In this document: in pieces, positions 9,874-53,942 of the stretch | Numbering within the stretch: the stretch's first letter is position 1 | How the letters are laid out: every line of letters starts with the position of its first letter | Origin: Flaccisagitta enflata | Lineage: Eukaryota | Direction: 5' to 3' | Length of the DNA: 64,000 nucleotides | Assembly (NCBI GenBank): GCA_965153355.1 | Contig: OZ231126.1 | Location: forward strand, 30,690,001-30,754,000 | Notes under the pieces: generated by a model | Told to the model about the DNA's origin: nothing | Database searches by the model: none | What the model saw: only the letters and a program-made list of their open reading frames with translations | Position numbers and translations under genes: made by a program

Positions 9874-11313
9874 TAGTCGCGTGCATGGGACTCTATGACT
9901 CACTCTGTCCGTCGGTCCCTCCGTCTGTCTGTCCGTCCCTCTGTCCGTCGGTAACGCTTAGCTTTTTTTCGTGGTTTGACATTATTTTATGTCTTTTCAA
10001 GTTATTTTAAGTCATTTTAAGTCATCTTAAGTCATTTTGAGTCATTCTGAGTCATTCTAAGTCAGTTTAAGTCATTCAAAATCATTATCACAAGTCATTA
10101 CAAGTTATTCTAAGTCACTAAGTTATTTTTTGGCTCTTGTAGTTTTTGTCATCTTACGTCATCTTAAGTCATTGTAAGTAATCTCAAGTAATTCTAAGCC
10201 ATTTCAAGTCATCTCAAGTCATTTCAAGTCATTCTTAGTCATTCTAAGCCAGTTTAGGTCATTTTTTTTCTGCAAGGTTTGGTTTATATCTGGTTTATGT
10301 CTGGTTTAAGTCTGGTTTAGATCTGGTTTAAGTCTGGTTTAAGTCTGGTTTGAGTCTGGTTAAGGCCTGGTTTAGGCCTGGTTTGAGTTTGGTTTAAGTC
10401 TGGTTTAAGTTTGGTTTAAGTCTGGTTTAAGTCTGATTTAAGTCTGATTTAAGTCTGGTTTAAGTCTTGTTTAAGTCTGGTTTAAGTCTGGTTTAAGTCT
10501 GGTTAAAGTCTGGATTAAGTCTGGTTTAAGTCTGGATTAAGTCTGGTTTAAGTCTGGTTTAGGTCTGGATTAAGTCTGGATTAAGTCTAGTCTAGTTTAG
10601 GTCTGGTTTAGGTCTGGTTTAGGTCAGATTTAAGTCTAGTTTATGTCTGGTTTAAGTCTGGTTCAAATTTGGTTTAAGTCTGGTTTAAATCTGGTTTAAG
10701 TCTGGTTTAAGTCTGGTTTAAGTCTGGTTTAAGTCTGGTTTAAGTCTGGTCTAAGTCTGGTTAAAGTCTGGTCTAAGTCTGGTTAAAGTCTGGTTTAAGT
10801 TGGTTTAAGTCTGGATTAAGTCAGGTTTAGGTCTGGTTAAAGTTTGGTTAAGGTCTGCTAAAAGTCTAGTTTAAGTCTGGTTTAAGTCTCGTTTAGTTCT
10901 GGATTAAGTCTGGTTCAAGTCTGGTTTAAGTTTGGTTAAGGTCTGGTTTAAGTTTATTTAAGGTCTGGTTTAAGTATGGTTTAGGTCTGGAATAAGTCTG
11001 GTTTAGGTCTGGTTCAGGTCAGGTTTAAGTCTGGTTTAAGTCTGGTTTATGTCTGGTTTAAGTCTGGATTGAATCTGGTTTAAGTTTGGTTAAAGTCTGG
11101 TTGTGTGGTCTAGGTCTGGTTTAAGTCTGGTTCAAGTCCGGTTAAAGTCTGGTTTTAAGTCTAGCTAAGTTGGTTGAAGTCTGGTTTATGTCTGGTTTAA
11201 GTCCAATTTATGTCTGGTTAAAGTCAGGTTTAAGTCAATAAAGAGATACAATAAGGAGTCAGGTGAATTCAGTTATCAATCTCTCGCACGCGACTTATAG
11301 GTGTTGGCCTCGT
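9874..11313 (+). mobile_element. HINE/DINE-1-like element, family A, with internal 10-bp and 11-bp tandem arrays
   Basis: 5' TAGTCGCGTGCA subTIR plus GTCY microsatellite; AAGTCATTYT repeats then ~85 AAGTCTGGTTT units; 3' CACGCGACTTATAGGTGTTGGCC; T-run flanks, no TSD. Confidence 0.85.
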
Positions 11314-16241: not shown

Positions 16242-17823
16242 TAAAATACCCTGAAATTCTTTAAAGCACCCTTAAGTAACCTAAAGTACCCTCATGTACC
16301 TTAAGTACCTAGAGTACCTTGAGTACCCTTAATAACCCTGAGATAAACTGAAGTACCCTAAACTTACTTACACTGCCCCCGCCCTGCCCATCCCACTAAA
16401 TTCACCCATGTCACCCCAATAATCAGTTGACCGGACAGACCATAAAAACAGACGATAAAACGCCAAAAAAAGACAATAAAACAATAAAAAGCCAGATGAC
16501 AAAAACAATGATAAAACACAAAAACGCTTAAATGATAAAACTTACTTTAGGCCCAATTTCCTTGGTTTCCCGCCAGCGTCGTGATTGTCATAAAGGTCAG
16601 ATGTCCGTTCATATGTCTCTGGAATAAAAGAATGAGAGACTTATGAAAAGCATGAAATTCCAAGGGCGCACATCATGAAAATCAAGCAAAATATGATACG
16701 TTCCATTAAAAAGCAATGCCATGACAATGTCTACGCAATTAAAAATCAAAGCATAAAAATATACAACAACGAAAAAAGTAGAAAGAAAAATACGTGAGAA
16801 CATGTAATTCCAATTCAATAAAAGAGCAAGGCGAGATGGTTCAGAACCAGCGCACCATATGGAGAAAAATAAAAATGGCTAAAACAAATGGCATCAAATT
16901 GGAAAGAAAGGAGAAAAAGACATTCACTCGAAGAACATCATCATTCCCATGCTTATGAAATAGCACACATTTCCACACTCTGCCCCATTTTTGGAATTTC
17001 ATGAATTTCAAAAATCCGACATCTAGTTTCGGTCAGGGGAAACCCTAAATAAAAAACCCAGACTGTCACGCTAAAAAAAATTCATGATAATTAAAATACA
17101 GCCCCTCTCCCCCGCCTCCGCCACTTACATCCCCACCCCCCCTACAGAAGGAGATCAACAAGCGACATGGCGAGGAATGTTTCCCCCCCTGTCCGGAAGG
17201 GGGGGACGAAACCACATCAAGTGATCAATCCAACAATGACGGGCGGAGAGGAGCACGGAGACAAGGAAGATGAGGCGCCCGTTCTGTTAAAAAGTTAATA
17301 AGGGAAGGGGGGGGGGGGGAAGGGGGAACGGGCCTAGGAGCACCTCTGGGATTTGGGATTTGGGATTTGACATCGAGGTGGAGGGCATTGACTAAAATGT
17401 ACAAAGATACACACCTATTCATAAACAACATGCTAAAAAGAACAATGTCAAATACAAAAAAAACATACATGTTCCTAAGAACACAAAACAAGAATAAAAT
17501 AATAAATTACTATCCAAACTACATTAAAAACCGAATCTGAAAAGAAAAGAATCTGAAAAGAAAAAATTAGGTAAGATTCATGGGAACAACCACATCACCT
17601 GCACCATTTCCCAAAGGAAATATGTGGACCATATCAGAAGCTCCAACAGCTCGTCAATTCGTGGGCAAAAGACGAGGATGAAAGGATCGAGATGGACACC
17701 GCGGAGACGGGCAGATGGCGTCGTCGTCTGTAGAGTTTTTCTCCCCTTGCGGGGAGACGAAAGAAAAGAGAAAGGGGGGGGGGGGGGGCAGATGGATTAG
17801 TACAGCCCTTATCATATGCAGAT

Positions 17824-20088
17824 TCAAACATAATAATAAGAAAATGAACACACCATCTCTTCCATGAAACTTACGCTGGCGTTTTTGCCAGGCCCCAGGG
17901 TGGATAAGAATCCCACGCCCCGGGTCACGCCCCTGACAATGCCGGCCTGTCCATCAAGGGATGAGCGTTGCGATGGAATTGACAACAACTCAGCAAAATG
18001 GTGGCGCTCTTCATGTCGCGTTACATTGACGGTAATTAAGAGTAAGAGTAACTGTGGACCTGGCACCAAGTTGAACAGCATTATTGCGGCGGCTGCTGAT
18101 GGTGTTGCTGCTGCTGCTGCTGGCAGCCCTTTGGATTCCAAGGACGCCTTTTTGACTTTGGCGGCGCCTAGGGAGCGTCTGTAGCGCTATTTGCAGCTGA
18201 TGAGACGGAAGGCCAACTTTCATTTTCTGCAGATGCTGCCGGTGTCGACGAAGCTGTGGAGGTCACTGGAGCCAGAATGGCACAAGGATCTTGCTGTATG
18301 CAGATGACGTGCTTGACAACTGCTGCCGCCGACGCCTTCTGCGCAAATCCTGTTGCCTCCTTAGCCTTTGCGTCCGCCACTTGCTTTGCCTTTTCCAACC
18401 GCTTCTCCAGTTCTGCGACTCCCATATCGCTCTTGACCTTTGCATCTGACGCAATCATCGCTTTGCGTCTCGTCTCCATGACTTCCATCTGAATCCGCAA
18501 CGCTTCCGCCATATCCCAAATCGCACGGGCACATTCAACTCGCTGGGCGGCGCTGAAAGTTTTGTAAAATGCGGCCGGGTGAAAACTTGCAAGCCTTGAC
18601 AACTGTCGTTTGGAGGGGCTCTTTCCAGTTGCCAAACACAGGCGGAGCAAATGCTCGTCGATGCAAAGTCCAGTCTTGGGGTCAAGAACCGTCGATGAAG
18701 AGTTTGGCGATTCCAACTTCTTTTGCTGATCCGCTGATGGTCCTTTGGCTTGATGTTGAGACGCCGCAGAACCACTGGCGACCGCTGGAGGCTTAAGATC
18801 ACCAATTGGATTTTTCCCTTGCGCTGCTGCTGCTTCTGGCCGCTGTTTAAGCTCCTTTGCCTTCTCCTACGCGGGCGTGAATGAAGTTGAAGTCGCTTCC
18901 CCCCCTACCTGAAGCTGTTGCTGCTGCGCTGGGATCCTCCTGCTGCTGAGGAGGCTGTTGTTGCTTCTTTTTGTTATTGTTTTTGCCTTTGCCTTTGCTT
19001 TTGGAGTTGGCCGTGGCATGAAGCTGTTGTTGTTGCTGCTGCTGCTGTTGTTGTTGCCGTTGCTGCTGCTGATGTTGTTGCTGCTGCTTCGGCTACTGGT
19101 GTTGCTGCTGCTGCTGCTAAAGTGGCGCCGGACCAAGTCCCGGGCCCTTCTTCTCTTGTCAACGCCTTTTTGGATTAGGAGTTACATCACGAGGATCCGG
19201 CGGCTGCTGATTTGGTGGATGAACCAATGCCGGACGCATTTGACAAGCTGCTGCTGCGTCGGTGGAAGTTGCCGCCGGTGGGTTTGCGGCTGCAGCAGAC
19301 GATGGAGTTGTCGTAAATTTCTTCCTCGACGCTTGGACCACACGTCGAGCCTCCTTGTAATTCTCCCTTTTTTGTTTTTTGTCTTCCTTGTCTGCGCTCT
19401 AGGGTACCGAAGCCCAACCCACACTGAGTAGCCGACGAGCGCATCTCCTTCTCTTTGTTGCAGCACAAGTTTAATTTTGAGAATGTTTTGAAGAGCAGCG
19501 ACTCACACTCATCCGCTTGGTCATTGCGATGGTAAAACCGGTGGCTTGCTTCCGCTGGATTCTGACCTCCGGGGAGTCTTCATCCACTTCCAGGTCGACA
19601 GGCGTCTCCTCCTTTTCCTCCACAATCACCTCCACATCCATCCCCTCCTCCTCCACGCGCACCTCCTCCCCATCAACCTTCGAGCCGCTGTCTCTGCCCC
19701 CGCTGCGATTTTCTGCAGCTTTCAATTTTTCCTGGAGAATGGCTCTCGCCTCCGGAGGAGCCGGTCCACCAAACCCAGGGGTGAAGATTTGGCGAGGGGG
19801 CGATGGAAGGACGGATGATCTCGATGACGGAATGGAAACATCGTCGACGGGCCGCTTCAACTTCACCCTCCGATGATCCACTCCCGCGGTGGTGTTTGTC
19901 GTGATGAGGATGGGAGGGAGAGAGGAAGAAGAAGAGGGGTCGGCCGGCTGTTGGAGATTTGCCGACTCATCATCCTTGGCAAGGTTGAGGTCGCCGCTGA
20001 AGGCGGCTTTTGTCACAGCCTCCACCTCGTCCTCTAGCAACGCTGCAGAATCCGTCTCAAAGTCTTCATCCCAATCTGGCGACGCCAT
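17824..20088 (-). pseudogene. Degenerate ~750-codon accessory ORF downstream of BEL/Pao pol
   Basis: ORF fragments 19471-20088, 19159-19341, 18168-18716 and 17824-18141 link through single stops/frameshifts; GC-rich coding-like composition matching the retroelement. Confidence 0.6.
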
Positions 20089-20531
20089 CAGTCAGGCGAT
20101 GTCAAAAGAACCGTCGCCTGTGGACGCATCCATCTCGGCTTGAAGACGCTGCTCGCGCGACATCTTGACTCTGACGAATCGACTTCAAGATGGTGACTGA
20201 CGTGAAGATGGAATTTCGATGTCTGCGGAAGCTTTGACAGTTGATTTTGACGTATGAACTGTGTTTGGACAGAAGCAATAGAGAAATAGAATGATATCTA
20301 CATATAGACAAAGCAGTGAACCAATGTTTGAATTTTTTAGCATGAAAATGAACATCACAAATTTGCCAATGTGAGGAAAGAGTTGAATGCATGGATGAAT
20401 AGAACCAAATATGAAGTCGTACATCTCTTTATGTCATTTAAAAACAAACAGAGCAACAAACATTCACATCTATAGTTACTAATAGACAGGCCCATGCGCC
20501 TATATCTCTCTCTCTCAAAACTTAGCGTTTT

Positions 20532-23395
20532 TTATGAGTCCATCTCCAGCTGCACCATCTTCGTGCGATCCCTTGTGACAATTTTTCTGTCGGCGCGGCG
20601 CACGTGCACCCTCCAGACATGGGGCGACGTCCCTTCCACGTCGACGACGATCCCTAGGCTCCAATCATGTCTGGGCACGGCCTCGTCGACGATGATTACA
20701 AGATCATCAACCGCAAAGTCTCTCTCGGATTTGGTCCATTTACTTTGCGCATGAAGGAGGCTTAAGTATTCACAATGCCACTTTTTCCAAAAAGCATCCA
20801 CTCGAGATTGCGCGTGCTTCCATTGGAAACGTGCCGACTCCGCGTCTAAGTAGACGCCGTGCTGATACAGATCCACAGGAGCGCCCTTGGATGTAGATGG
20901 CGATAGGACATGGTTTGGCGTTAGCGCAGAAGGATCGCTTGGATCATCACTCAGCGTGGTGAGAGGGCGACGGTTGAGAATTACTTCCACTTCGATGACG
21001 GCGGTGTGGAAAGTGTTGATGTGCAACGTGGCGCCAGTTGATATGGAGGCGAGGTGGCACTTAAACAGCGGGACCAACCTCTCCCAAACACCACCATAGT
21101 GCGGCGTTCGGGCGGTGATGAAATCCCATTGGAGGCCTCATCGTCGCAGATCAAGAGTTGATGAGCGATTCCACTCTTCCATTTTCTTTTTTAGGATGTT
21201 ATTGGCGCCAACCAGGTTCGTTCCACAATCAGACATGAAGCGGCGGATACCTGGGCGCCTGGCTGCGTACTATGGCATTGATCATTGGGTCAGCAGACAT
21301 GTTGTAGAGCAGTTTTACGTGGACGGCGCAGGAGACAAAGCAAGTAAAAACTGCCACCCACACCTTGTGATCCGCTCTTCCGTTCATTTTGACGTTGAAA
21401 TGTCCCATTACATCCAGCCCTGTCTCCGCGAACACAGGGGCAGGATTGACGCGATTAAATGGTAGTGGCGCCATCTGCTGATTCTCATGTTTTTAGTCGC
21501 GTGCACGCGACTCTACAACCCGCTTTGTTGGTCCGTCCGTCCGTCCGTCCGTCGGTCCGTCCGTCCGTCGGTCTGTCCGTCACACTTTACTTTTTTGTAC
21601 TATAACGTCAACTCTTAGGTCATGTTAAGTCATTTTAAGTCATTTATAGTTATTCTAAGTCATTTTGAGTCATTCTAAGTCATTTTGAGTCATTTTAAGT
21701 CATTTTAAGTTATGTTAAGTCATTTTTGGTTATTAGGGTTTTTAGTCATTTTAAGTCAATTTTGGTCATTTTAGGTCATTCTAAGTCATTGAAAGTCATT
21801 CTAAGTCATTCTAAGTCATTCTTTGTTTGTAAGTCTCGCACGCGACTTATAGGTGTTGGCCTTGTTTAAAGTTCCTCTGGCATCCAAAGCAGGAGTGAAC
21901 GACGCTCTTGACGGCCTGAAGACCTTTCATGGTCCATGCAAATTGACGCAGTTGGCATAATGTATGCTTTGCGCCAGCATGGAAGTCCTTATGATGAACA
22001 TGGCAGATTAATGACTTCACATTATCGTCTTTTGGTGGAAGAATGAAGGGAAACTTTTTGTCATTGGAGATGTCGGCATTGACCAAACGGCTGCCGACTC
22101 GAAGTATGCCGTCGTCGTCGACAAAAGAATTGAGCTTCCACATCTCCTTGTTCTTGACGATGAATACATGACGGCTATTTGGTTTATCAACCTTTCCCAC
22201 CTCCAACTGGACCATCACCTCTCCATAATGTTGCCGCTGCACAGCCTTGACAAGTCGCTTCTGTGCTTCCTCCAGATGGACTTGCAACACTTCGGGTTTT
22301 GGGAGGAGATCCTGTGCCGCTCTTGTCTTTGCCTTTGGGACCATTCGCCACTGCTGGGCTGCGATGAGAAGCATGGCAATGACGCGAAGTTTGTGCGTCC
22401 ATTTCCCCCGAGATGTGGCTGCATGCAATATCGCGTCAAATTCTTTTCTCTCCCCCTCGACAGCTGCATAGAGCGCAGCCACGTGGACGGAGATAGGGCA
22501 CGTTGCAATGTTTGTCTTTGGCCATTGATCCTCAGGTAGACGCAAAAATTCGGGTCCGTTGTGGAATTGACTCCACTTTTTCGCCTCATGCAATTCGATT
22601 CCACAAGAGCAATGATCAGCGGGGTTATTGGCAGAAATAACCCACCTCCACTGCTCTGGACTTGATCCTGCATGGATTTTTGAGAGACGATTGGCGAAGA
22701 AGACATGATGGGTGATGGGTTGTATATCATCTTCAAAGCGACCTCTGAATCTGACCACAGTCTGACATTTTTCTCCTGCAGCTTCAGAGTTTTGTTGACG
22801 AACCGCTTGAGCTGAATCACCTTTTCAGCAGAGACGATCTCCACGCAAGGTACGCTGTTGTGATGAGATGCTCTTTTTGGATTGAGAGGAACCACGTGGG
22901 ATTTGGATCCCAAGATGGCCACGTACACCGAGCCATCAACGTTGACTTGACGACGATATGCGACAGCACCAAATCCACCTTTCGGCGCCGCTTTGCAAAA
23001 TATCTCGATGCTGATGGAAACGGCGCTCGCGGTGTCTGTATTGCCGTTCTACCATCTCTTGACCCATTATTGTTGTAGAAGCGGCCAAGAAGACGTGTAT
23101 TTGAAGAATGATTCCTCCAACCCCTTGTGAAGTGGAGAATCCCATCCTGTCTGTTGTGGACGACACAGTTGAAGATGTCGCCTTCCAATGTATTGGCTTG
23201 GGCTCCAAAAGCCAAGTGGATCGTATAGTTTGGCTTGCATGGAGACCAATTGACGTGGTGTTTTCGCCCTCATTGTTTTGAATTCTTTGTCGCAGATGAA
23301 GACGAAGGCGTCTTCAGCCGGAAGCCACGAGACTCCCAACACTTATCTGCGATTGGAATGGCGACATTAGGATCTCCTTCCATGAGCTGATGCGC
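20532..23395 (-). pseudogene. pol: BEL/Pao pol 3' part: RNase H region and integrase (frameshifted, HINE-interrupted)
   Basis: VLGVSW, LYDPLG, WSDSEVAL, FFANRLSKI, HHCC zinc motif (H..DFHAG...CFGC), TGLDVMG, SDCGTNLVG, VEVILNRRPL, ALTPNH. Confidence 0.9.
21494..21865 (+). mobile_element. HINE family A inserted in the BEL integrase
   Basis: AGTCGCGTGCACGCGACT palindrome, GTCC microsatellite, AAGTCATTYT repeats, 3' GGTGTTGGCCTTGTT; removing it restores NFKKHENQQMAPLP. Confidence 0.9.
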
Positions 23396-23400
23396 ATGAA

Positions 23401-24051
23401 AAAGTTGGGTATGGAATTGAAACAAGAGTATAGACTGAATCTCTCCATGAGATCTCTTATGAGACGAGTGTAAGGATGAGTGTACTCATACACATTACAG
23501 TTGAGATCTGCAAGGATGATGAATTGGCATTCGGGATTTTGATTCATGATGTTTTCGATAAAACTGATGGTATCTTTGTACATGGACAAATAATTGGGCA
23601 AGTCACCAGTATTGTAGTATGGAAAGTACACATTGATTAGTAATATGTTGCCTGAATCCGTTTCTAGGTGCAAAACTGTTACTCTCTCATGCGAGAAATT
23701 CAAGAGTGGTTTCAAACAACTTGCAAATCTTTTATGGTATAGGAAACCAGTTCCACCAAAAGGCCTTCCTGTTATGATTTGAGATTGAAAAGATTTTTTC
23801 ATTGCGGAGGTGCCGTATCCGTCAAAGTCAGGATGCAAAGCGCGAAGTTGATTTACACCTTTTTGTTTCTTATAAGGCAGCCTAAGCCAATGCTCTTGTA
23901 TTGCTCTTATTGAGTTAGAATTATTATCACAGAGTTCATGAAGGAAATCTCTATTCCTGCAAAACCCATTAACATTATGGGAACTAATGGTTATAGCTGA
24001 ATTATTGAGTTGATCCATCGTTGGAGTGAGGAGCTTCGGAGGTGCCGTCAC
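23401..24051 (-). pseudogene. LINE ORF2 N-terminal apurinic-like endonuclease (inverted part)
   Basis: ISSHNVNG, AIQEHW, GRPFGGTG, INVYFP, ILADLN motifs. Confidence 0.9.
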
Positions 24052-24560
24052 GATTCGTTTTTTGGAAAAATTTCCTCAACACAACTCTTTCAGGCCAAAA
24101 ATCACTTTCTTTCACACGCTCCATGTCTTTCTTTCTGATAGTTAGTCGAAAACTTTTAAAGCGATTGTGTTGCCTTTTGAGCTCTTCCAGATCTACTACA
24201 TTGACTCCCTGGGACTCAATGCCACTTTTAACATCATCGAGAGAGGCATTGATATCAACATATCCAAGATAAAGATTGAGGGTGAGGTCTGCGCCTCTCC
24301 ATGACCTTAAGCCCTCGGACACTTTTTTGCCGATCACAATGTCATTTGATTTACGCGCTCTAGTTTGCCCGGCCGAGTTGAATCGAGCATTGTGCTTTTG
24401 TGACCTTCCCGCCCGCGTGCTAATCCGACCTGAGTTATTTTGGCCACCGCGGCCAACGTTGTTGTGACCACCGCGTCCGTGATTGTTACAACCTCTTTGA
24501 GAGAAATGTCCATTGTAAGGAAAACCAGAAAAGGTAGCGATCCCTGTCGATGATGCGAGG

Positions 24561-24622
<62 letters not shown>

Positions 24623-24666
24623 GGCAGAGCCCCCTTGGCCACATAATGGAATCAAGTGAGATGCCG

Positions 24667-24757
<91 letters not shown>

Positions 24758-24801
24758 GGCAGAGCCCCCTTGGCCACATAATGGAATCAAGTGAGATGCC
24801 G

Positions 24802-24862
<61 letters not shown>

Positions 24863-25738
24863 GCTGTTGTTGTTGTTGCTGTTGTTGTTGTTGTTGTTGT
24901 TGTTGCCGGTAGAGCCCCCTTGGCCACATAATGGAATCAAGGGAGATGCCGGATTGTCGTTGTTGACTGCTGAGATGGAAACGCCGTCGCCGTCGCTGCC
25001 ACAGACGACTTCATTGCCGCTATTGGCACTGTTTTTGTTGCCACTTGCGTCTGATACGTCACTGTCGCCCCCAGCATTGGCGTTGTTTTTGTCAGCATCA
25101 GTTCTTTCATCGTTAACGTCGTCTTCGTCGGCGGTATCACTGCCAACGCCTCTTTCACCAGCCATCACCTCGCCGAAACTGAGACGCGGTGGTAAAGCCA
25201 TTGATTGAGACAAAGGTTGAGGCATTACACGACGATGTGGTGACATAAATGGAGATGCAGGAACTGCGGGTCTCACGATTAAGTTAGACATCATTTTAAG
25301 AGCTGACATGATTTCCGATTTGAAAGAATTTAGCGAATCTTTCGTCACATAGTCTTTTCTCATGTTCAATAGCGTGCCATGAATTTGTGAGTTAGGAATC
25401 GTTCCATCCTCAGAATAAGGAAAGTTACTGTATTCAACAGCGACGCACATTGGCTGCCAGTCACCACTTGCATCGCGCGATTTCATTTCCTGAAGTATGT
25501 CGTCCAGGTCTTTGAGTTTTTTATCTGCATTGCGACTTTTTATAGCTCTTTTTCCTATTGCCGTGAAAAAACGTTCTTTTTCCCGCCAAACGTAATCTTC
25601 ATCGTGGTAAAAGTTATCACATATTTTTATGATGTCGTCGTGTGGAATGGATTGGAGCTTGTTTTGTAGATAGAAGAGTAAGTCAGAGCTCATAATCTTT
25701 TCATCTTCATTGATGAAAATTGACGTTAAAGCGGCCAT
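24002..25738 (-). CDS. LINE ORF1 protein with poly-Asn expansions and C-terminal RRM-like domain
   Basis: 578-aa open frame directly upstream of ORF2; C-terminal LYLG...FKSFRLTI...FWPERV typical of CR1/L2-group ORF1. Confidence 0.85.
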
Positions 25739-25889
25739 TAGTCCGTTTATGTTTAAAACATTAGTTAAAACTTTAGTTAAAACATGTCCAAGTCCCTCTA
25801 CTCGAAGCTAGGTAAAGCAAACAAGTGCAAAGAAACAAGGCAGAAAGAGTTGGATTCTTTCTCTCCGTATGTTTCAAAGGCCGAAAACT

Positions 25890-28140
25890 TTTCATCCCAA
25901 AAATGCCTACACACGCAGTGATGTAAAAACTAATTCATATACCTTGATTGATTGTGTGCTCATCAGCGAATCTCTAAGAGAAAAAGTGAAAGATGTCCGG
26001 ATATCGACATATGGCCACAATCTTTCAGACCATTGTCCTATTGAATTTGAGCTTCATGTCAAAATCACTGAGTCGCACGTAATTAAACCAAAGCTTCCGT
26101 GTTTTATCAATTGGAAGAAATTATCAGATTCTCACCTGAACAGCTTTCGCGAAGAGATGAAAACCAACTTAGAGTCTATCAATGTGCCATTTCATGACCT
26201 ACTACATGGGGATAAATGTTGTTTTGATGATTGCCATAAAATGTCTTTGGAGCAATATTATTGTGATATTGTAAATGCAATAATCAGTGCCGAGAGTGTG
26301 TTGCCGAAATCCAACCCAAACTTTCAACGTGATTTTTGGGATGATGATTTAACGGAATTAAAGAGTAGATCCATCAAATGCAACGCTATTTGGAAAAGCC
26401 TTGGCTGTCCTAAATCGGGTCCCGCATTTGAGTGTTGTAAGAACTGCCATTATTCTTATAAATCATCTCTTCGTAAAAAAAAGGCAGCCTCTGAAAAAGC
26501 GCATACAGATTCCATGCACAACGATCTTATAAATAAGGACGGAATTTCATTCTGGAAAACTTGGAATAAGATAAATGGTTTGCGAGAGTCGCCCATAACG
26601 AGAGTAAATGGTGAAACCAATTCCAAAAAGATTGCAGAAACATTTGCGAGCTATTTTGAGTCTGTGTACAGTGGCCATGAGACGCCAGTACATATGAATT
26701 TAAAAACTCATTTTGAAAAATCGTATTCTTCCTACATCACCGACCATATCAATGATATAATCACACCATATCTCCTGACTTGGTCCGATATGATAGATTT
26801 GGTCTCAAAAGTGAAACCTGGTAAAGCAGCATCTGGCAGTATAAAATCAGAACATCTACTCCATGGAAGTCCCGAGCTTTTGTGCCATTTTCATCTACTT
26901 TTCAATGGACTAATACAACATGGTTATGTTCGCGCTGAGTTTTTAAAAGGGACGATCACGCCCATAGTAAAAGACACAGAGGGTGACCTTTCTGACCCTT
27001 CAAATTATAGAGGGATTACTCTGAGTTGTTTGCCTGCTAAATTGTTTGAATTAGCCATTCAGTTGAAAACTTGCCATCTGCTTGGGACCAAACGAGCTTC
27101 AATTCGGCTTCAAGCATAAAACCAGCACAAACCACGCATTGTACACAATGAAGTCCACAATTGACCATTTCTTAGAAAAAGGATCTGATGTCTATGTGGC
27201 TTATTTAGATTGCACAAAAGCATTTGATCGAATATCGCATTATGGATTATTCTCTAAATTGATGACTCGCAACATTCCACTTTGCATACTGTTATGCCTC
27301 ATTTATTGGTACATTAATATGTCCTCATGTGTCAAATGGGGCGATGAGCTCAGTCGAAATTTCAAAGTCCCTCTTGGAATAAAACAAGGGGGGATTAATT
27401 CTCCCGACCTATTTGGCTGCTATATTGATGATCTGACTAACTTACTACGTGGATTGAACATTGGCTGCCACTTATTTGGAATTTTCTTGGCTATGATCCT
27501 TTTTGCGGATGATTTATGTCTGTTGGCACCAACCAGGGCTGCCTTGAACAAGCTCATTCAGAAATGCGCTTCTTACTGCAACAAACATGGACTTACATTC
27601 AATGCCAAAAAGTCTAAAATTCTTGTTTTCTCAAAGAAAAATGTTGATCACGAACGACTCCTTCCCATCTCTCTAAATGGCGATACAATTGAATACTGCC
27701 ATTCAGTCAAATATCTTGGCACACAAGTCGTCTCTGATAAAGGACTATCCTTTTCCGCCTCTAAAGATCTCTCTTCTTTTTATCGTGCATCAAATGCAAT
27801 TCTAAGAGCAGTGACAAAACCTAGTGACGAAATTATGCTGCACATTCTGTATACAAACTGTATTCCTATCCTAACATATGCCTGCGCAGTAAAGGAGTAT
27901 ACATCGAGGCAAATGCAAGAGTTCAACACTGCTCTTAACAACGCATTCAGATTAATCTTTGGCTACAACCGTTGGGAAAGTATCAGATCACTTCGTGAAT
28001 CTTTTGGATATAGCTCACTCACTGAACTTTTTGCCAAAGCAAGAAAACGATTTGATAATCAATTGCCTCATCATCGTAACAAGGTGTTAACTAATCTTGC
28101 TCGAAATATTGTCATTGAACGTGAATTGAATAGGGAATAG
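25890..28140 (+). pseudogene. LINE ORF2 remainder: endonuclease C-terminus and reverse transcriptase, one frameshift near 27090
   Basis: LIDCVL, LSDHCPI, NYRGITL, QFGFK, LDCTKAFD, GIKQGGINSP, FADD, YLG; one extra A in ACCAAACGAG breaks the frame. Confidence 0.92.
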
Positions 28141-28290
28141 CTTTATTTTTTTTTTCTCCTCATACTCAATGTTACTCATTGTCTCGTTTTGGTTATGAAC
28201 TTGCTAGTATTAGTCTTTCTATTTTCTTTCTCTTTTTGTCATTCTGTCGCTTTACTGCTGATGAAATAAAAGAGCATATAAGAGGATGAA

Positions 28291-29769
28291 TCATTTGACT
28301 ACTTGGCTAACTGGTATGAAACCAAAGTGACATCGTCCCATTGATGACTTCACTCCCGTTTTCAACTCCAACGCCTCGTCGACCGTATCGCCGCCTCCAC
28401 TTCCGTCTTTGACGTAAAAGCCATAACAAATAGAATTGTAGACGTTGGAAGGATAATATGGCTTGATCACTTCGGCGCGGTGTCTGTCGGTGAAACCCGT
28501 CACGCATGAGCTTGAGAGACTTCCAAACACGTGGGAGAGAAATAGATTCAATGTTGCAAGGCGGAGGCTTCTGTCCTTGAACCAAAGAAATTTGAATAAA
28601 TCAGCGTCATCAGGGTGGACTCGAACTTGATGGAAGAAAGCCTTTATGTCACACATATAGGCTATCTTCCATTGACGGAAGCGCATGAGGATGTCCATCA
28701 AACTGTTCATCAGATTTGGTCCGCCTACCAATAGATCATTCAATCAGATGCCGTCAGTGGCGGCGCGGGCGTGGTGACAAACCCTCAACTTCCCCCTCAC
28801 TTCAACTATATGAAGGGGAAGGTACCAGCGCGGCTTGATGATGTCCTCATTGTCGTCAATGCTGTCAATCTCAACCGCCATGCCCGTCTCGTAGAATTTT
28901 TCAACTTCTTGGAAAACTCGGTCCTTGAAGGCCGGATTGCGATTAAAGCAGAAGCGTTGGTTGACGAGCCGCTTCATAACTGTAGGCCGAGACTTCACTT
29001 TGCGCAAGATCTCCATGATTTTCTCGAAGTCAAATTTCCATGTGACAGGCGCATAATACTTTTTTGTCACTTTGCAGAAACGGATCTTCTTTTTCAGTGT
29101 TCCACAGGCGCGTATATTTTCAAGCGAATCGCCCATTTCTTCAGAGGAAACAATTGATCCAGAAACATGGTAGAAAATTTGGTCAATTTTTTCGTGGAGA
29201 TCGTTGTTATCAACCAAAATAGCGTTAGTTGAAATAGCGTTAGTTGATGCGACGTCCAAACCTTTTTCCCATTTTTTCCACTAATTGTCCAACCAAAACT
29301 GCATCTGAAGCATGTTAATGATCCTGGAGGACCTCGACGACGCTCTTGAGCGATGGCAGCGTCCAAATGAGCGGCGCCAACAATCATTTTGATGCCTCCC
29401 ATCGCCTCTGGGAATTTTATGCCTCTGACGTGAGGTTGATTGGATAGATCACGGAGAAATGGAGGAATGTCTTTTTCACTTGTCGTTGACATCGATGATG
29501 TACTTGGAGTTGGTGGAGCAAAGAGTGAATGACGCTAAAAGACGGTTTTCAGTCACACAATTGTCTACTGTCACTACCTTTATTTGGACCATATTTGTCA
29601 AAATGCGCAAATCGTTGATGATGTCGTGGCTGATGACATCTCTGTCCGCACCACTATCTATCATCGCAAAGATTTTTTTTTCTTCACCAGACACACAATT
29701 TACAATCACTACAGGGACAATGGGACGAACGATGTTGTCGAAAGATGACACGGATCGCGACGCGGCCAT
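28291..29769 (-). pseudogene. pol: BEL/Pao pol 5' part: aspartic protease and reverse transcriptase
   Basis: AMIDSGAD, FGWTISG, WYLPLH, KLRVC, NDLLVGGPNL, DIKAFFHQV, HVFG, FYVKDG (mutated YVDD); several stops/frameshifts. Confidence 0.9.
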
Positions 29770-29778
29770 TGCCGCCAG

Positions 29779-31520
29779 TCATGCCTCGACATTTGGAGTA
29801 ATGACGTTCGAGTCTGTGGTGGTTGTTGTTGTATACGTTGATGATGTGGTGGAAGCGTCGGAGAATTTTTCGAAATTGGCTAATGGAATGCCATTATTGG
29901 ACTTTTCTCCTCCCTTCTTCACCTCCTTACCATCACCTTTCTTCACCCATGTGCGTCCGTGGAGAATAGTGGTGTGTTGTTTCTTGCAAGTTTGGCACGT
30001 TGGTCTGTTGGTACAACCTTTTGCCAAGTGTCCACTTGTGAAGCAATGGAAGCAGAGTGATGCCAGTTTTTGGACTCTTGCGTCGACGTCAATAGAAAGA
30101 AGTTGGTTACATTCTTCCGTCGGATGCATGCCGCTGCAGACATTGCAGCGGCACGTCTACTGCACCTTTTGCTTCCCATTGGTCAAAACATCATTGTAGG
30201 ATGGCGGATTTTCGCCCGTTGCCACTGTTGCCACCGCCGCGGGCTTACTCTCCACCCCTTTGTTGCATTGAATGAGAGCCCAAGTTTCAATCATATTGAC
30301 AAGATTGTCGAATGAAAAGGGGATGCCTTGCAAGTCATATTCGTGATGCTTTTCCCAAAATTTGTCGGCTAAATGTGGAACTCTTTATTGATGATCTCTT
30401 GCAATAACTCTTTCCGATAACACTGTGGCAATTCTCCACACGTTTGCGCAATTCTCTTCATCTTCTGCAGCTTTGACCCAAGATGAAAATGTCTCTTATG
30501 GTCGGCAGATGAGATTCTTGATTTGGCGGTGATCTTGTGGAAAAGCGCCGGGATGTTGGCGCGGCTCGCCATGAGGAGGATGTCCATCTTTTTGAAGGCG
30601 GCGGTCACCTCCTCCTCTGCGACTTCTTCCGTTGTGCCAATTGGCGCCGTTTCAATAATCTCCTTAGCCGGTCCCGAGAACCATTTTGGTAATTCCAACA
30701 AGATATCCATCTCCGTCAAACCCTCATGTTTCGCAGCATCTTTAAACTTGCGCTTCCGCATCATATAGTCCGTTGACAAGAGCTCCTGAACCGGCTTCTC
30801 CGGCCTTCCTTTCTCCAATGCTTTGAGGCCGATCTCTCTAGCGCGCATTCGATTGTCATCAGAAGCCCTCTTTAGAAACACCTCCAGTGCCTTGCTCTGA
30901 GGAAGCTGATTCACCACTTCCGGTTGACGAGCAGTTGGAATGATGTGATGATCCTGATATGTGGGAGGAGGATTGATGTTGAAGTATTGTCCTCCAGCCT
31001 TCGCTGGAGACTTTCTTTTTGTGGTTTTTGTGTACCACACGTCGTTGTTATCTTGCTGTTGATGCTGTTGATGTTGTTGTTGTTGGTGTTGATGGAATTT
31101 TGGCGCATCAAAGTCTTGACGAACATATTGATGTTTCTGCAAATGGTCTATTTGAGCCTTTGCTGCGCGCAAGTCGAATCGATTTTGTTGAATTCTACGC
31201 TGTTGTGCCGCATTTACCTTCATCAAGTTTGCAGCATCTTTTTTGAGACAACGCATCTGACGGTCTACTTCGGGAAGTTGATTAGCCAAAGCTGCTTCTG
31301 ACGCCTGCGACTTCTTTCTCTCTTCCTCCTGCATCCGTCGCGCAAACGCCTCGTCAGCTGCTTCTTGCAACTTCTTCCTTCTTATTGCATCATTTGCATC
31401 GCCCACCAGCATCTGGTCAAGTTTCAACAAATCCGCCGCCGTCGACGAGAGATTCGGCGCCGTATTCATGACTTCTTTCTCTTTAGAAACCGGCGCTGTA
31501 GGAGGAATGACGGCGATCAA
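29779..31520 (-). pseudogene. gag: BEL/Pao gag (5'-truncated)
   Basis: Coiled-coil-rich ORF followed by Cys motifs CNVCSGMHPTEEC, CFHCFTSGHLAKGC and CQTCKKQHTTILH, immediately upstream of the protease. Confidence 0.85.
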
Positions 31521-45291: not shown

Positions 45292-47456
45292 GAATGGCGA
45301 CCATCGTTGAAGAGATCCTGTCTCTATGGGACCACTTGGGAACCACAGTCAAAGTGGACGAGACTGGATTCATCTCTGGACCAAAGTCATGAAATTGAAA
45401 CCTCGACCGCACACTCCCCTCAAAAAGTTGGGTCAGACCAAAATGCAAAAGTTGTCAGGAAACTTTTCCAAGTCAGGCCGCTTGTAATTCACACATGGAA
45501 GATGTCCACAAAGGACGTCACTTTCTCTGCCACTTGTGTGGAGTCATGCTTCGAGGCAATTCGCAAAGTCTACAGCATAGAAAAGAACATGAGAAGCCAT
45601 ATGCTTGTAGATTCTCTATTTTCTATGTAAAAGCAAAAGACAGAATGTCTTGGAGGTCGTGGCATAATAACTCATGCGACTTTTGCGAAGCCCAACTTCC
45701 AAATAGGCACATGAAGCGGCATCATGTGGATGAAAAGCACCGCGGAAGGAGCTTTGTCTGTAATATTTGTCACCAAACAATCGATTCTTATTTGTTCTTG
45801 CCAGGCCATGAAAGGAAACACTCGGAAACACCCACCTTCAATGCAGAGTTTAAAATATCCATCGCGAACTTGGGCTCTTTGATCCCGCTTCTAAAATCAC
45901 AGGAGGCATTGGAACCGTTAACGCCAAAGCATATTTTGTCGAAGAAATGTCCCCATTGCATTGAATCGTTTATAAATGAAGGCGACACTCGACAACACAT
46001 AGCAACAGATCATGAGGGACAAAGATTTCTTTGCGACACCTGCGGAACCTCCACTAAAGACATCACACTCCATCAAAAACTGAATGAATCTTGCAAGAAT
46101 GGCGAGTTCACTCCATTCTACGACAGAGCAAATTTGTACTGGGATTTCATCATCAAACCTGGAAGGTGCCCATTATGTAAAGAATATTTTTCTCACTTGA
46201 ACCTCCACTTTGAAGAACATCATAGATTTCGCAAGTTTCAGTGCAGTTTATGCGATGAAATGATATCCTCACACAAAGAGGTGCCCAAACACAAGATCTC
46301 GCATGCCACAGAGCCAACCTTCATCGTCCATTTTGGTCAGCCCGACCACAGTGTTTGTCCCTTGGTAAAACGTGACCAACGAAAAAAAATCCATCATATT
46401 TGCCACAAGAAATTTAAAAACAAGAAACAAAGAAAAATTCATGTTGAATCAAATCACAAGGGTCAGCGGATTCTCTGCCATTGCTGCGGGTCCGTTGTCA
46501 ATGACATCAAGTTGCACAGAGGGGAGTATGACTCTTGCAAAACTGCTTCCACCACTATCTTTTTCGATGTGAAGAATGAATGCACTATTCTTTCTTTGAG
46601 CGAGACGCATTGCAAGATTTGTAAGCAGGATTTCCCTAATTTGATGCACCACATCGATGAGGTCCACAGGTCACGGAAGTTCCGATGTAATCTATGCAAG
46701 GACGAAATTTTATCACATAAGGATCTAACAGAACACAAAGCTCTTCATATTGAAACTGCTACATTTACAGTTTTATTCAATCCTGTTGATAAGGAGACAT
46801 TCAGTAACGAGACTGACACAGCATGGCGTTGTCATTCCATGTGTTGCACTTGTTTTTTGATCCTCCCCAATTATGGCGATATGCAGAACCATCAACGTAG
46901 ACACGTCCCTAGTTCTTCTTTCATCATATACAAGCAGAAAGTTGAGGACTTCTTGCCTAGCCGAGGGTTAAAGAGTAAGTGTGAAATATGCAACGAGGTA
47001 TTTGTGGAAAACCATTTGAAGTTGCATCACTTTGATGAAATTCATAGAAATCGACGATTTAAATGCTTCGCTTGTGCATCTGAGATAAAAAGTCATAAGA
47101 ATTTGCTCGCGCATTTCCAGCAACACCTGGTTGAAGAACCGGTTATCTTTCAGACTGTCTACGACATCTCTGATCCAAAAGTAGCGGAGTTGATTAAGTC
47201 GCTGAAAAAGCCAACCTACGACTGTCATCACTGCTCAGAGTCATTCTCAAGAAGTGTCGCTTTGGCCACTCATTTAGAAACGGTTCACGCAGAAACTTAT
47301 GCCAATGGACTCCAATTCCTCTGTGATTATTGTGCAGAAGTTGGGAAAGACTTTAGAAACCACAAACGATCCAATGTTGCGTGTACAAATAGTTCTTTCA
47401 CCATCTTTTATGATATGAAACATGAAAGTCTGCCATACAATTCCATTGACAGGAAA
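45292..47456 (+). CDS. Multi-zinc-finger protein, large exon part 1 (~17 C2H2/C2HC fingers); gene probably disrupted
   Basis: Repeated CxxC-x12-H-x3/4-H; apparent 1-nt frameshift near 45440; cut by a HINE at 47457. Confidence 0.8.
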
Positions 47457-49349
47457 CAAGGCCAACACCTATAAGTCGCGTGTGAGACAAAGATAACTGA
47501 ATTGACCTGACTCCTTATTGTATCACTTTATTGGCTTAATCCAGACTTAAACCAGACTTAAACCAGACTAAAACCAGACTTAAACCAGAGTTAAATTAGA
47601 CTAAAACCAGACTAAAACCAGACTAAAACCAGACTAAAACCAGACTAAAACCAGACTTAAACCAGACTTAAACCAGACTTAAACCAGACTTAAACCAGAC
47701 TTAGACCAGACTTAGACCAGACTTAGACCAGACTTAGACCAGACTTAGACCAGACTTAGACCAGACTTAGACCAGACTTAAACCAGACTAAGACCAGACT
47801 AAGACCAGACTTAGACCAGACTTAGACCAGACTTAGACCAGACTTAGACCAGACTTAGACCAGACTTAGACCAGACTTAGACCAGACTTAGACCAGACTT
47901 AGACCAGACTTAGACCAGACTTAGACCAGACTTAGACCAGACTTAGACCAGACTTAGACCAGACTTAGACCAGACTTAGACCAGACTTAGACCAGACTTA
48001 GACCAGACTTAGACCAGACTTAGACCAGACTTAGACCAGACTTAGACCAGACTTAGACCAGACTTAGACCAGACTTAGACCAGACTTAGACCAGAGTAAG
48101 ACCAGACTAAGACCTGACTTAGACCAGACTTAGACCAGACTTAGACCAGACTTAGACCAGACTTAGACCAGACTTAGACCAGACTTAGACCAGACTAAGA
48201 CCAGACTTAGACCAGACTTAGACCAGACTTAGACCGGACTTAGACCAGACTTAGACCAGACTTAGACCAGACTTAGACCAGACTTAGACCAGACTTAGAC
48301 AGACCAGACTTAGACCAGACTTAGACCAGACTTAGACCAGACTTAGACCAGACTTAGACCAGACTTAGACCAGACTTAGACCAGACTTAGACCAGACTTA
48401 GACCAGACTTAGACCAGACTAAGACCAGACTTAGACCAGACTTAGACCAGACTTAGACCAGACTTAGACCAGACTTAGACCAGACTTAGACCAGACTTAG
48501 ACCAGACTTAGACCAGACTAAGACCAGACTAAGACCAGACTTAGACCAGACTTAGACCAGACTTAGACCAGACTAAGACCAGACTAAGACCAGACTTAGA
48601 CCAGACTTAGACCAGACTTAGACCAGACTTAGACCAGACTTAGACCAGACTTAGACCAGACTTAGACCAGACTTAGACCAGACTTAGACCAGACTAAGAC
48701 CAGACTTAGACCAGACTTAGACCAGACTTAGACCAGACTTAGACCAGACTTAGACCAGACTTAGACCAGACTAAGACCAGACTAAGACCAGACTTAGACC
48801 AGACTAAGACCAGACTAAGACCAGACTTAAACCAGACTTAGACCAGACTTAGACCAGACTTAGACCAGACTTAGACCAGACTCAGACCAGACTCAGACCA
48901 GACTTAGACCAGACTTAGACCAGACTTAGACCAGACAAGACCAGACTTAGACCAGACTTAGACCAGACTTAGACCAGACTTAGACCAGACTTAGACCAGA
49001 CTTAGACCAGACTTAGACCAGACTTAGACCAGACTAAGACCAGACTTAGACCAGACTTAGACCAGACTTAGACCAGACTTAGACCAGACTTAGACCAGAC
49101 TTAGACCAGACTTAGACCAGACTTAGACCAGACTTAGACCAGACTTAGACCAGACTTAGACCAGACTTAGACCAGACTTAGACCAGACTTAGACCAGACT
49201 TTTAAAAATGACTCAAAATAACTCCAGATAACCCAAAATGACCAAAAACGACGCAAAAAAGCTAAGTGTTACGGACCGACCGACCGACCGACCGACCGAC
49301 CGACCGACCGACGGAGCGGGTTGTAGAGTCGCGTGCACGCGACTAAAAA
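47457..49349 (-). mobile_element. HINE family A with ~150-copy 11-bp satellite (AGACCAGACTT) inserted in the zinc-finger exon
   Basis: Ends CAAGGCCAACACCTATAAGTCGCGTG and AGTCGCGTGCACGCGACTA; 3' block shared with 9874-11313; flanks rejoin as IDRK|RCDVCKK. Confidence 0.93.

Positions 49350-53942
<4,593 letters not shown>

Follow-up and report, generated by a model that had tools for sequence, protein, structure and literature searches.

A natural 5' inversion with almost no target-site duplication in a non-L1 LINE of Flaccisagitta enflata

In a 64,000-nucleotide stretch of Flaccisagitta enflata DNA (the window; G000:C1:30690001-30754000), a long interspersed nuclear element (LINE) with two open reading frames (ORFs) carries an inversion of its front 2.5 kb, and this 5' inversion is real in the assembly. 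ORF reading and Pfam matches place the LINE inside the pol gene of a BEL/Pao-type element. An origin coupled to the insertion itself is the best reading of the inversion. We tentatively favour the idea that it arose when the 3' end of the cDNA folded back onto its own strand. The genome searched comprises 794 Mb in 9 contigs; its loci are cited by contig (C1, C2, C6) and the copies fetched from it by L-number.

The inverted copy and its junctions

The second ORF of the LINE, ORF2, is split between the two strands: the minus-strand part ends ...SCFNSIPNF at 23401, and the plus strand restarts at 25890. An earlier note on this DNA had concluded that the endonuclease was cut in two and the 5' part inverted, and two other copies bear this out. 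An uninverted and 5'-truncated copy, L064 (C1:108.24 Mb, 97.5% identical), reads straight across the endonuclease break; it aligns to window 23936-23401 (minus) and then to 25890 onward (plus) with a 3-nucleotide (nt) overlap, so that at most one base was lost at the break. The second copy, L061 (C2:84.513-84.521 Mb), is a duplicate of the same insertion that matches window 23758-31515 and has an identical middle junction. The inversion must therefore be older than this recent duplication, and a misjoin is unlikely. The features of the locus are the following (window positions).

20532..23397, minus strand: BEL/Pao-type long terminal repeat retrotransposon, 3' part of pol, left flank; Pfam Integrase_H2C2 and DUF5641; collinear with uninterrupted copies to 23397
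23396..23397, plus strand: AT, the sole target bases on both sides of the original insertion (a 2-nt target-site duplication (TSD) or tail microhomology), from the overlap on natural BEL copies
23398..23400, plus strand: GAA, extra bases that are neither BEL target nor element here; mirrored as TTC at the middle junction
23401..24018, minus strand: inverted segment, start of ORF2 and N-terminal part of the apurinic/apyrimidinic (AP) endonuclease; in L064 and 46 further relatives it runs directly into the 3' part
24002..25738, minus strand: inverted segment, ORF1, about 580 amino acids (aa), with AAC/Asn tracts and no Pfam hit
25739..25890, minus strand: inverted segment, 5' untranslated region (UTR), about 130 nt short of the closest full-length relatives
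25886..25895, plus strand: middle (inversion) junction, AACTTTTCAT; element 5' end, TC replacing the family G, then AT common with the 3' part; identical in the C2 duplicate
25894..28140, plus strand: non-inverted ORF2, with the remaining endonuclease, linker and reverse transcriptase (RT; RVT_1, E 8.9e-25)
28141..28280, plus strand: 3' UTR and short (AT)n tail common to the family
28281..28336, plus strand: 56-nt patch derived from the high-copy tandem repeat that forms the 3' flank of L064; it stands in place of about 37 nt of BEL and holds a false TSD, ATGAA
28337..31515, minus strand: right flank of the BEL/Pao-type element, from the RT region towards gag; the C2 duplicate differs by 2 substitutions over 3016 nt

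At the breakpoint, where the window has TC, the 47 uninverted relatives that read through the site have G (46) or A (1), and none has C. L064 reads NFDPK here, against FHPK in the window. As no relative has C, the histidine and the TTCAT motif are derived from the junction. The break had been described as free of loss, with FHPK resuming the frame: its ends and positions stand, and the reading of FHPK without loss was off by one base. The RNA would have had TTGAT, TTCAT being absent from it unless a conserved Asp was altered, exceptionally, in the source.

The left junction runs from target AT through GAA to the inverted segment, which starts at AAAGTT, and the middle junction from the element 5' end AACTT through TTC to ATCCC. 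GAA belongs neither to BEL nor to the endonuclease sequence, and relatives carry CCT at the 5' truncation point. Its presence in mirror image at the left and middle junctions implies that target end and element 5' end copied each other at some stage. In addition, a 6-nt inverted match, AAAGTT/AACTTT, links the breakpoint to the LINE 5' end; with 6 sites in 4880 nt, such a match would fall within 2 nt by chance in about 0.6% of cases. The inversion junction thus shows microhomology, AACTTT, followed by TC instead of G. BEL flank within the inversion, which would have pointed to a later genomic event, was looked for, and none was found in the inverted piece beyond the ambiguous AT.

The claim that the entire 5' end was kept does not hold, as the closest full-length relatives L065, L070 and L173 carry 129-146 nt more 5' UTR; the copy is near-full-length and 5'-truncated, as inverted L1s usually are. 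Its ORF2 has a +1 frameshift near 27087-27092 that neither L064 nor the C2 duplicate shares, and the window copy is dead. ORF1 remains open in the window and contains, at 24540-24910, three AAC (poly-Asn) tracts split by a repeated PLCGQG motif; the tract lengths vary between paralogs.

ORF2, of about 950 aa (pieces of 209, 399 and 349 aa), combines an AP endonuclease and an RT. It has no C-terminal CCHC knuckle (no CCHC pattern is present) and no RNase H, and it matches human L1 ORF2p weakly (E 0.0015). A 3' tail ending in (AT)n is conserved across the family. Together, these traits exclude L1 by architecture. The 3' ends of CR1/L2-group LINEs have short tandem repeats and a conserved tail, and no poly(A). 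The group includes CR1, L2, Crack, Daphne and Kiri (PMC4120745). The assignment to this group made in the earlier note is likely correct, as a label taken from architecture. Most of the 87 ORF2 homologues have 920-960 aa, and some have endonuclease Pfam hits; named clade references are absent among them. The endonuclease pieces of the window gave no Pfam hit, and a PDB search with the endonuclease-linker protein gave no match. In the host element, pol ends with integrase and DUF5641, and dispersed related copies exist.

Target site and later rewriting of the locus

The sequence ATGAA had been read as a TSD, with one copy ending the left flank, complementary to TTCAT at the breakpoint, and another after the 3' end. 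The first part is contradicted by the host element: BEL ends at GCGCAT (23397), and among 36 matches to the motif at uninterrupted BEL loci, some of which are counted twice, none continues with ATGAA. When the left flank of the window and the right flank of the C2 duplicate are laid on natural BEL copies, they overlap by 2 nt (AT), directly in three of five copies and by extrapolation in two. This falls short of the 10-20 nt TSD expected of L1-type twin priming. A second ATGAA is indeed present at 28287-28291; it sits inside the L064-derived patch and is therefore foreign. We thus rejected ATGAA as a TSD, the C2 duplicate moreover retaining the original 3' junction. Nor does the primer pairing survive, given the TTGAT of the RNA: AT at the 5' junction might pair, yet it is followed by GAA where C is predicted, so that the microhomology between target end and RNA is not clean.

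With one divergent tract set aside, the LINE sequences of the window and the C2 duplicate differ by 3 substitutions over 3150 bases, and this sequence comparison shows that the locus was duplicated to C2 later, at 0.1% divergence. Since then both copies appear to have been rewritten. In the window, 28173-28336 is identical to L064, including 56 nt of L064 flank, and upstream of 28173 the private alleles of the window match the C2 duplicate and not L064. The junction between LINE and tandem repeat occurs at two places only in the genome, the window and L064. The repeat itself, of about 0.6-0.7 kb, is clustered at C1:100-112 Mb (L064:8400-8800). At the sequence level, the 3' junction of the window is therefore shown to have been overwritten with L064 sequence. 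Two other accounts of the patch, degenerate BEL and a 3' transduction that arrived with the insertion, were discarded, as the patch is the high-copy repeat flanking L064 and the C2 duplicate keeps the original junction between (AT)n tail and BEL. L064 meets the tandem repeat at a TATA microhomology and has unrelated sequence as its 5' flank.

The divergent tract of the C2 duplicate (L061:5890-5995; window 26717-27651) has 32 substitutions in 934 nt, and part of it is the 3' tail of the LINE that lies nested inside the C6 copy L071; it is an ectopic conversion or a polishing chimera. Ectopic conversion and assembly-polishing chimerism could each explain the patches at both loci. L071 (C6:8.077-8.084 Mb) is a close family copy broken by a near-full-length distant relative in the same orientation. 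On C2, the region 84518193-84532537 (L061-L063) forms a 14-kb palindrome with 6-kb arms about 99% identical, in which BEL 28544-31515 is duplicated in inverted orientation; it diverges from the window beyond 31515. More generally, an apparent TSD can stem from later conversion or assembly patching, and a check against an empty site or a paralog is needed.

How the inversion may have arisen

To place the inversion within its family, we surveyed 173 related regions, a first set of 93 and a further 80 from a tail motif (198 genome matches; 100 listed, of which 18 were already in the set, and 80 of the other 82 added). A count of inverted copies had been proposed as a check; in these regions it revealed no other balanced inversion. 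Five separate protein pieces gave matches on both strands in none of the 93 regions, with positive controls flagged. A DNA-level strand test on 89 of the 93 gave no further inversion: opposite-strand matches were found at 35 loci, 30 of them due to flank included in two reference pieces, and the other five, on inspection, proved to be different repeats or to lie well away from the 5' junction. The 80 tail-motif regions, among the matches listed, also have none, although less than 200 nt of body was detected in 50 of them. For this family, the flip looks to be a rare accident and not a habit.

The relatives also inform on target sites. In 48 tailed copies, none has a flanking repeat of at least 12 nt and three have repeats of 10-11 nt; repeats of at least 8 nt flank 8 of the 48, against 5% in controls, although some true 5' ends may fall outside the searched span. 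One related LINE, L205 (1.9 kb, 5'-truncated), has a 105-nt imperfect fold-back palindrome exactly at its 5' junction (L205:2527-2631; C2:10241659-10241763), which is a snap-back inverted duplication. The 5' junctions of L078, L105, L107 and L162 show short local tandem duplications like templated end-joining scars, and a similar one is present in the BEL flank (window 29219-29250).

The breakpoint lies exactly at the LINE 5' junction, and no BEL sequence beyond AT is inverted, which favours an event coupled to insertion. In the account that we tentatively favour, 5' joining would have started normally, and target end and cDNA end would have come to share GAA/TTC plus AT. The cDNA end, AACTTT-TC-AT, would then have re-paired with AT-C-AAAGTT, a stretch of the same strand within the endonuclease region, and served there as primer for second-strand synthesis of the 3' half, after which the 2.5-kb loop would have opened at the mismatch and been joined to the target end. 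The improbable 6-nt inverted match, the replaced family G and the same extra bases at both junctions speak for such a snap-back. It would need no long overhang, which fits both the 2-nt TSD here and the lack of TSDs of at least 12 nt in the 48 relatives. The fold-back of L205 makes it plausible that cDNA ends prime on themselves in this group of LINEs. Snap-back junctions have been described for R2 proteins (PMC11371274) and fold-back inversion within single-stranded DNA in yeast (PMC11724301), and the available text of PMC4245944 reports no twin-primed inversions for ZfL2-1, an L2-clade element with 5-nt overhangs.

Several points weigh against this proposal. Pairing at the breakpoint amounts to 6+2 nt around a bulge with an unremarkable duplex energy, and for all three snap-back primer ends tried the breakpoint is outside the six best duplex sites. 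That it is the unique best inverted match was a post-hoc impression (1 site in L064) unsupported by duplex energies, and we dropped it. In 28 delimited 5' junctions, short inverted matches are not above control. The published snap-backs and L205 are inverted duplications and not a balanced 2.5-kb inversion, and no precedent for the opening of the loop came to light. At the left junction there is one A beyond those that the model predicts. At least two post-insertion rewrites of the locus raise the prior for a later inversion. Finally, the product would be indistinguishable by sequence from that of a twin-priming variant.

In that variant, which we regard as possible but doubtful, the upstream target end gained GAA, primed on UUU of the RNA and reverse-transcribed the 5' half, after which the end of the second cDNA briefly copied its own start (TTC-AT) and then annealed to the first cDNA by AT. 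The earlier note had proposed twin priming in a non-L1 element; the geometry and an insertion-coupled reading stand, but not the ATGAA duplication or the primer pairing. As in L1 5' inversions, the 5' piece lies inverted against the upstream target end and on its other side adjoins a colinear 3' piece. The copy also shows traits described for twin priming, namely almost no loss where it is inverted, microhomology at that point and 5' truncation of the inverted piece (10.1101/2024.08.27.596794; PMC2912911), and a 5' inversion has been recorded in one insert of the Nimb clade. Conversely, the TSD has 2 nt as against 10-20 nt in inverted L1s, extra 5' bases are given for only 3.9% of these, and the breakpoint ranks 14th of 43 possible priming sites for the target end. 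Two separate irregular steps would be required, and the single case in this family compares with 18-31% of human L1 copies that are 5'-inverted (PMC12016303; PMC2912911).

Less probable again is a later genomic inversion, in which an ordinary insertion of the LINE, with extra bases at the 5' junction, was followed by a flip through template switching or end joining that used the short inverted repeats present at that junction and within the endonuclease gene. The middle junction is the exact reverse complement of a normal 5' junction (AT + GAA + 5' end), and a non-reciprocal switch would leave GAA duplicated and G lost. Rearrangement is common here, both paralogs having been patched from other loci and the C2 region being palindromic. 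However, such an event would have no reason to break exactly at the 5' junction, with many equally short inverted matches presumably nearby, and the 173 related regions have no internal inversion at other breakpoints.

An assembly artefact, the inversion being a misjoin, is very improbable. Public runs, available as contigs only, were compared over window 24960-28800, the left junction lying outside; none of the listed contigs bridges the middle junction, and the junctions are neither confirmed nor contradicted there. Nor do these contigs show an uninverted allele at the site, which carries no weight as evidence. In the run X1, a contig starts one base past the C/G breakpoint site, a weak hint of a branch. 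The paralog patches at both loci could also be polishing chimeras. Against a misjoin, the same middle junction was assembled at two loci that differ elsewhere, and on natural BEL copies the left junction and the right junction of C2 agree exactly, which would not be the result of a misjoin. Classical twin priming on an ATGAA TSD is less credible still; the classical mechanism also gives no reason to expect identical extra bases at the two junctions.

The proposed snap-back suggests a wider, and more hesitant, idea: LINEs without a long target overhang could perhaps make balanced kilobase-scale 5' inversions by snap-back and opening of the loop onto the target, without twin priming, the mirrored extra bases of this locus being the diagnostic trace and L205 showing the same first step resolved as a fold-back.

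Elsewhere in the window, two 11-bp satellite arrays in opposite orientation occupy 10150-11100 and 47400-49150, and a 9/12-bp array is found near 51200. Open frames with low-complexity tracts on the minus strand (17800-20100) adjoin the BEL 3' end and are possibly another retroelement ORF.

Comparison with known systems

Ostertag and Kazazian in 2001 reportedly described 5'-inverted, twin-primed insertions of human L1. Such insertions are documented in several later sources (PMC4245944; PMC2912911; PMC12016303; 10.1101/2024.08.27.596794). The 5' inversion is treated as a near-exclusive mark of L1 twin priming and explained by the long target overhang of L1 (PMC4245944). The earlier note had called such an event rarely documented in a non-L1 clade of an invertebrate, and we agree: searches of the open-access literature turned up no invertebrate CR1/L2-group copy with a natural 5' inversion, and PMC5389967, PMC6007223 and PMC2718515 mention twin priming in their reference lists only. 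A natural inversion in a family with almost no TSD indicates that the geometry alone is not diagnostic of twin priming. This is a single event whose mechanism cannot be fixed from sequence, and the general question is not settled.

Like human L1 5' inversions, the window copy has an inverted 5' piece next to the upstream target that meets the colinear 3' piece head to head, with microhomology where the two join, and it is 5'-truncated. Unlike human L1, the element is of a non-L1 type with an (AT)n tail, and its TSD has 2 nt instead of 10-20 nt (PMC4245944). The frequency also differs, with one inverted case in the family. Furthermore, its extra bases are mirrored at the inversion junction, whereas L1 has clean microhomology between target and RNA; extra bases of the 5' junction mirrored in this way provide a checkable signature for a second route.

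The inserts of ZfL2-1, ZfL2-2 and Nimb-2_DR share with it short TSDs and extra bases at 5' junctions (PMC4245944). Unlike the window LINE, ZfL2-1 is without 5' inversions in either cell type in the available text of that cell-culture study, and Nimb-2_DR has one. As for the snap-back junctions of R2 proteins, the cDNA 3' end primes on its own strand and leaves antisense element sequence at the upstream junction (PMC11371274), a pattern also seen in L205. The R2 cases were engineered insertions in human cells with inverted extra synthesis, whereas the window holds a natural, balanced 2.5-kb inversion of a LINE with an AP endonuclease.

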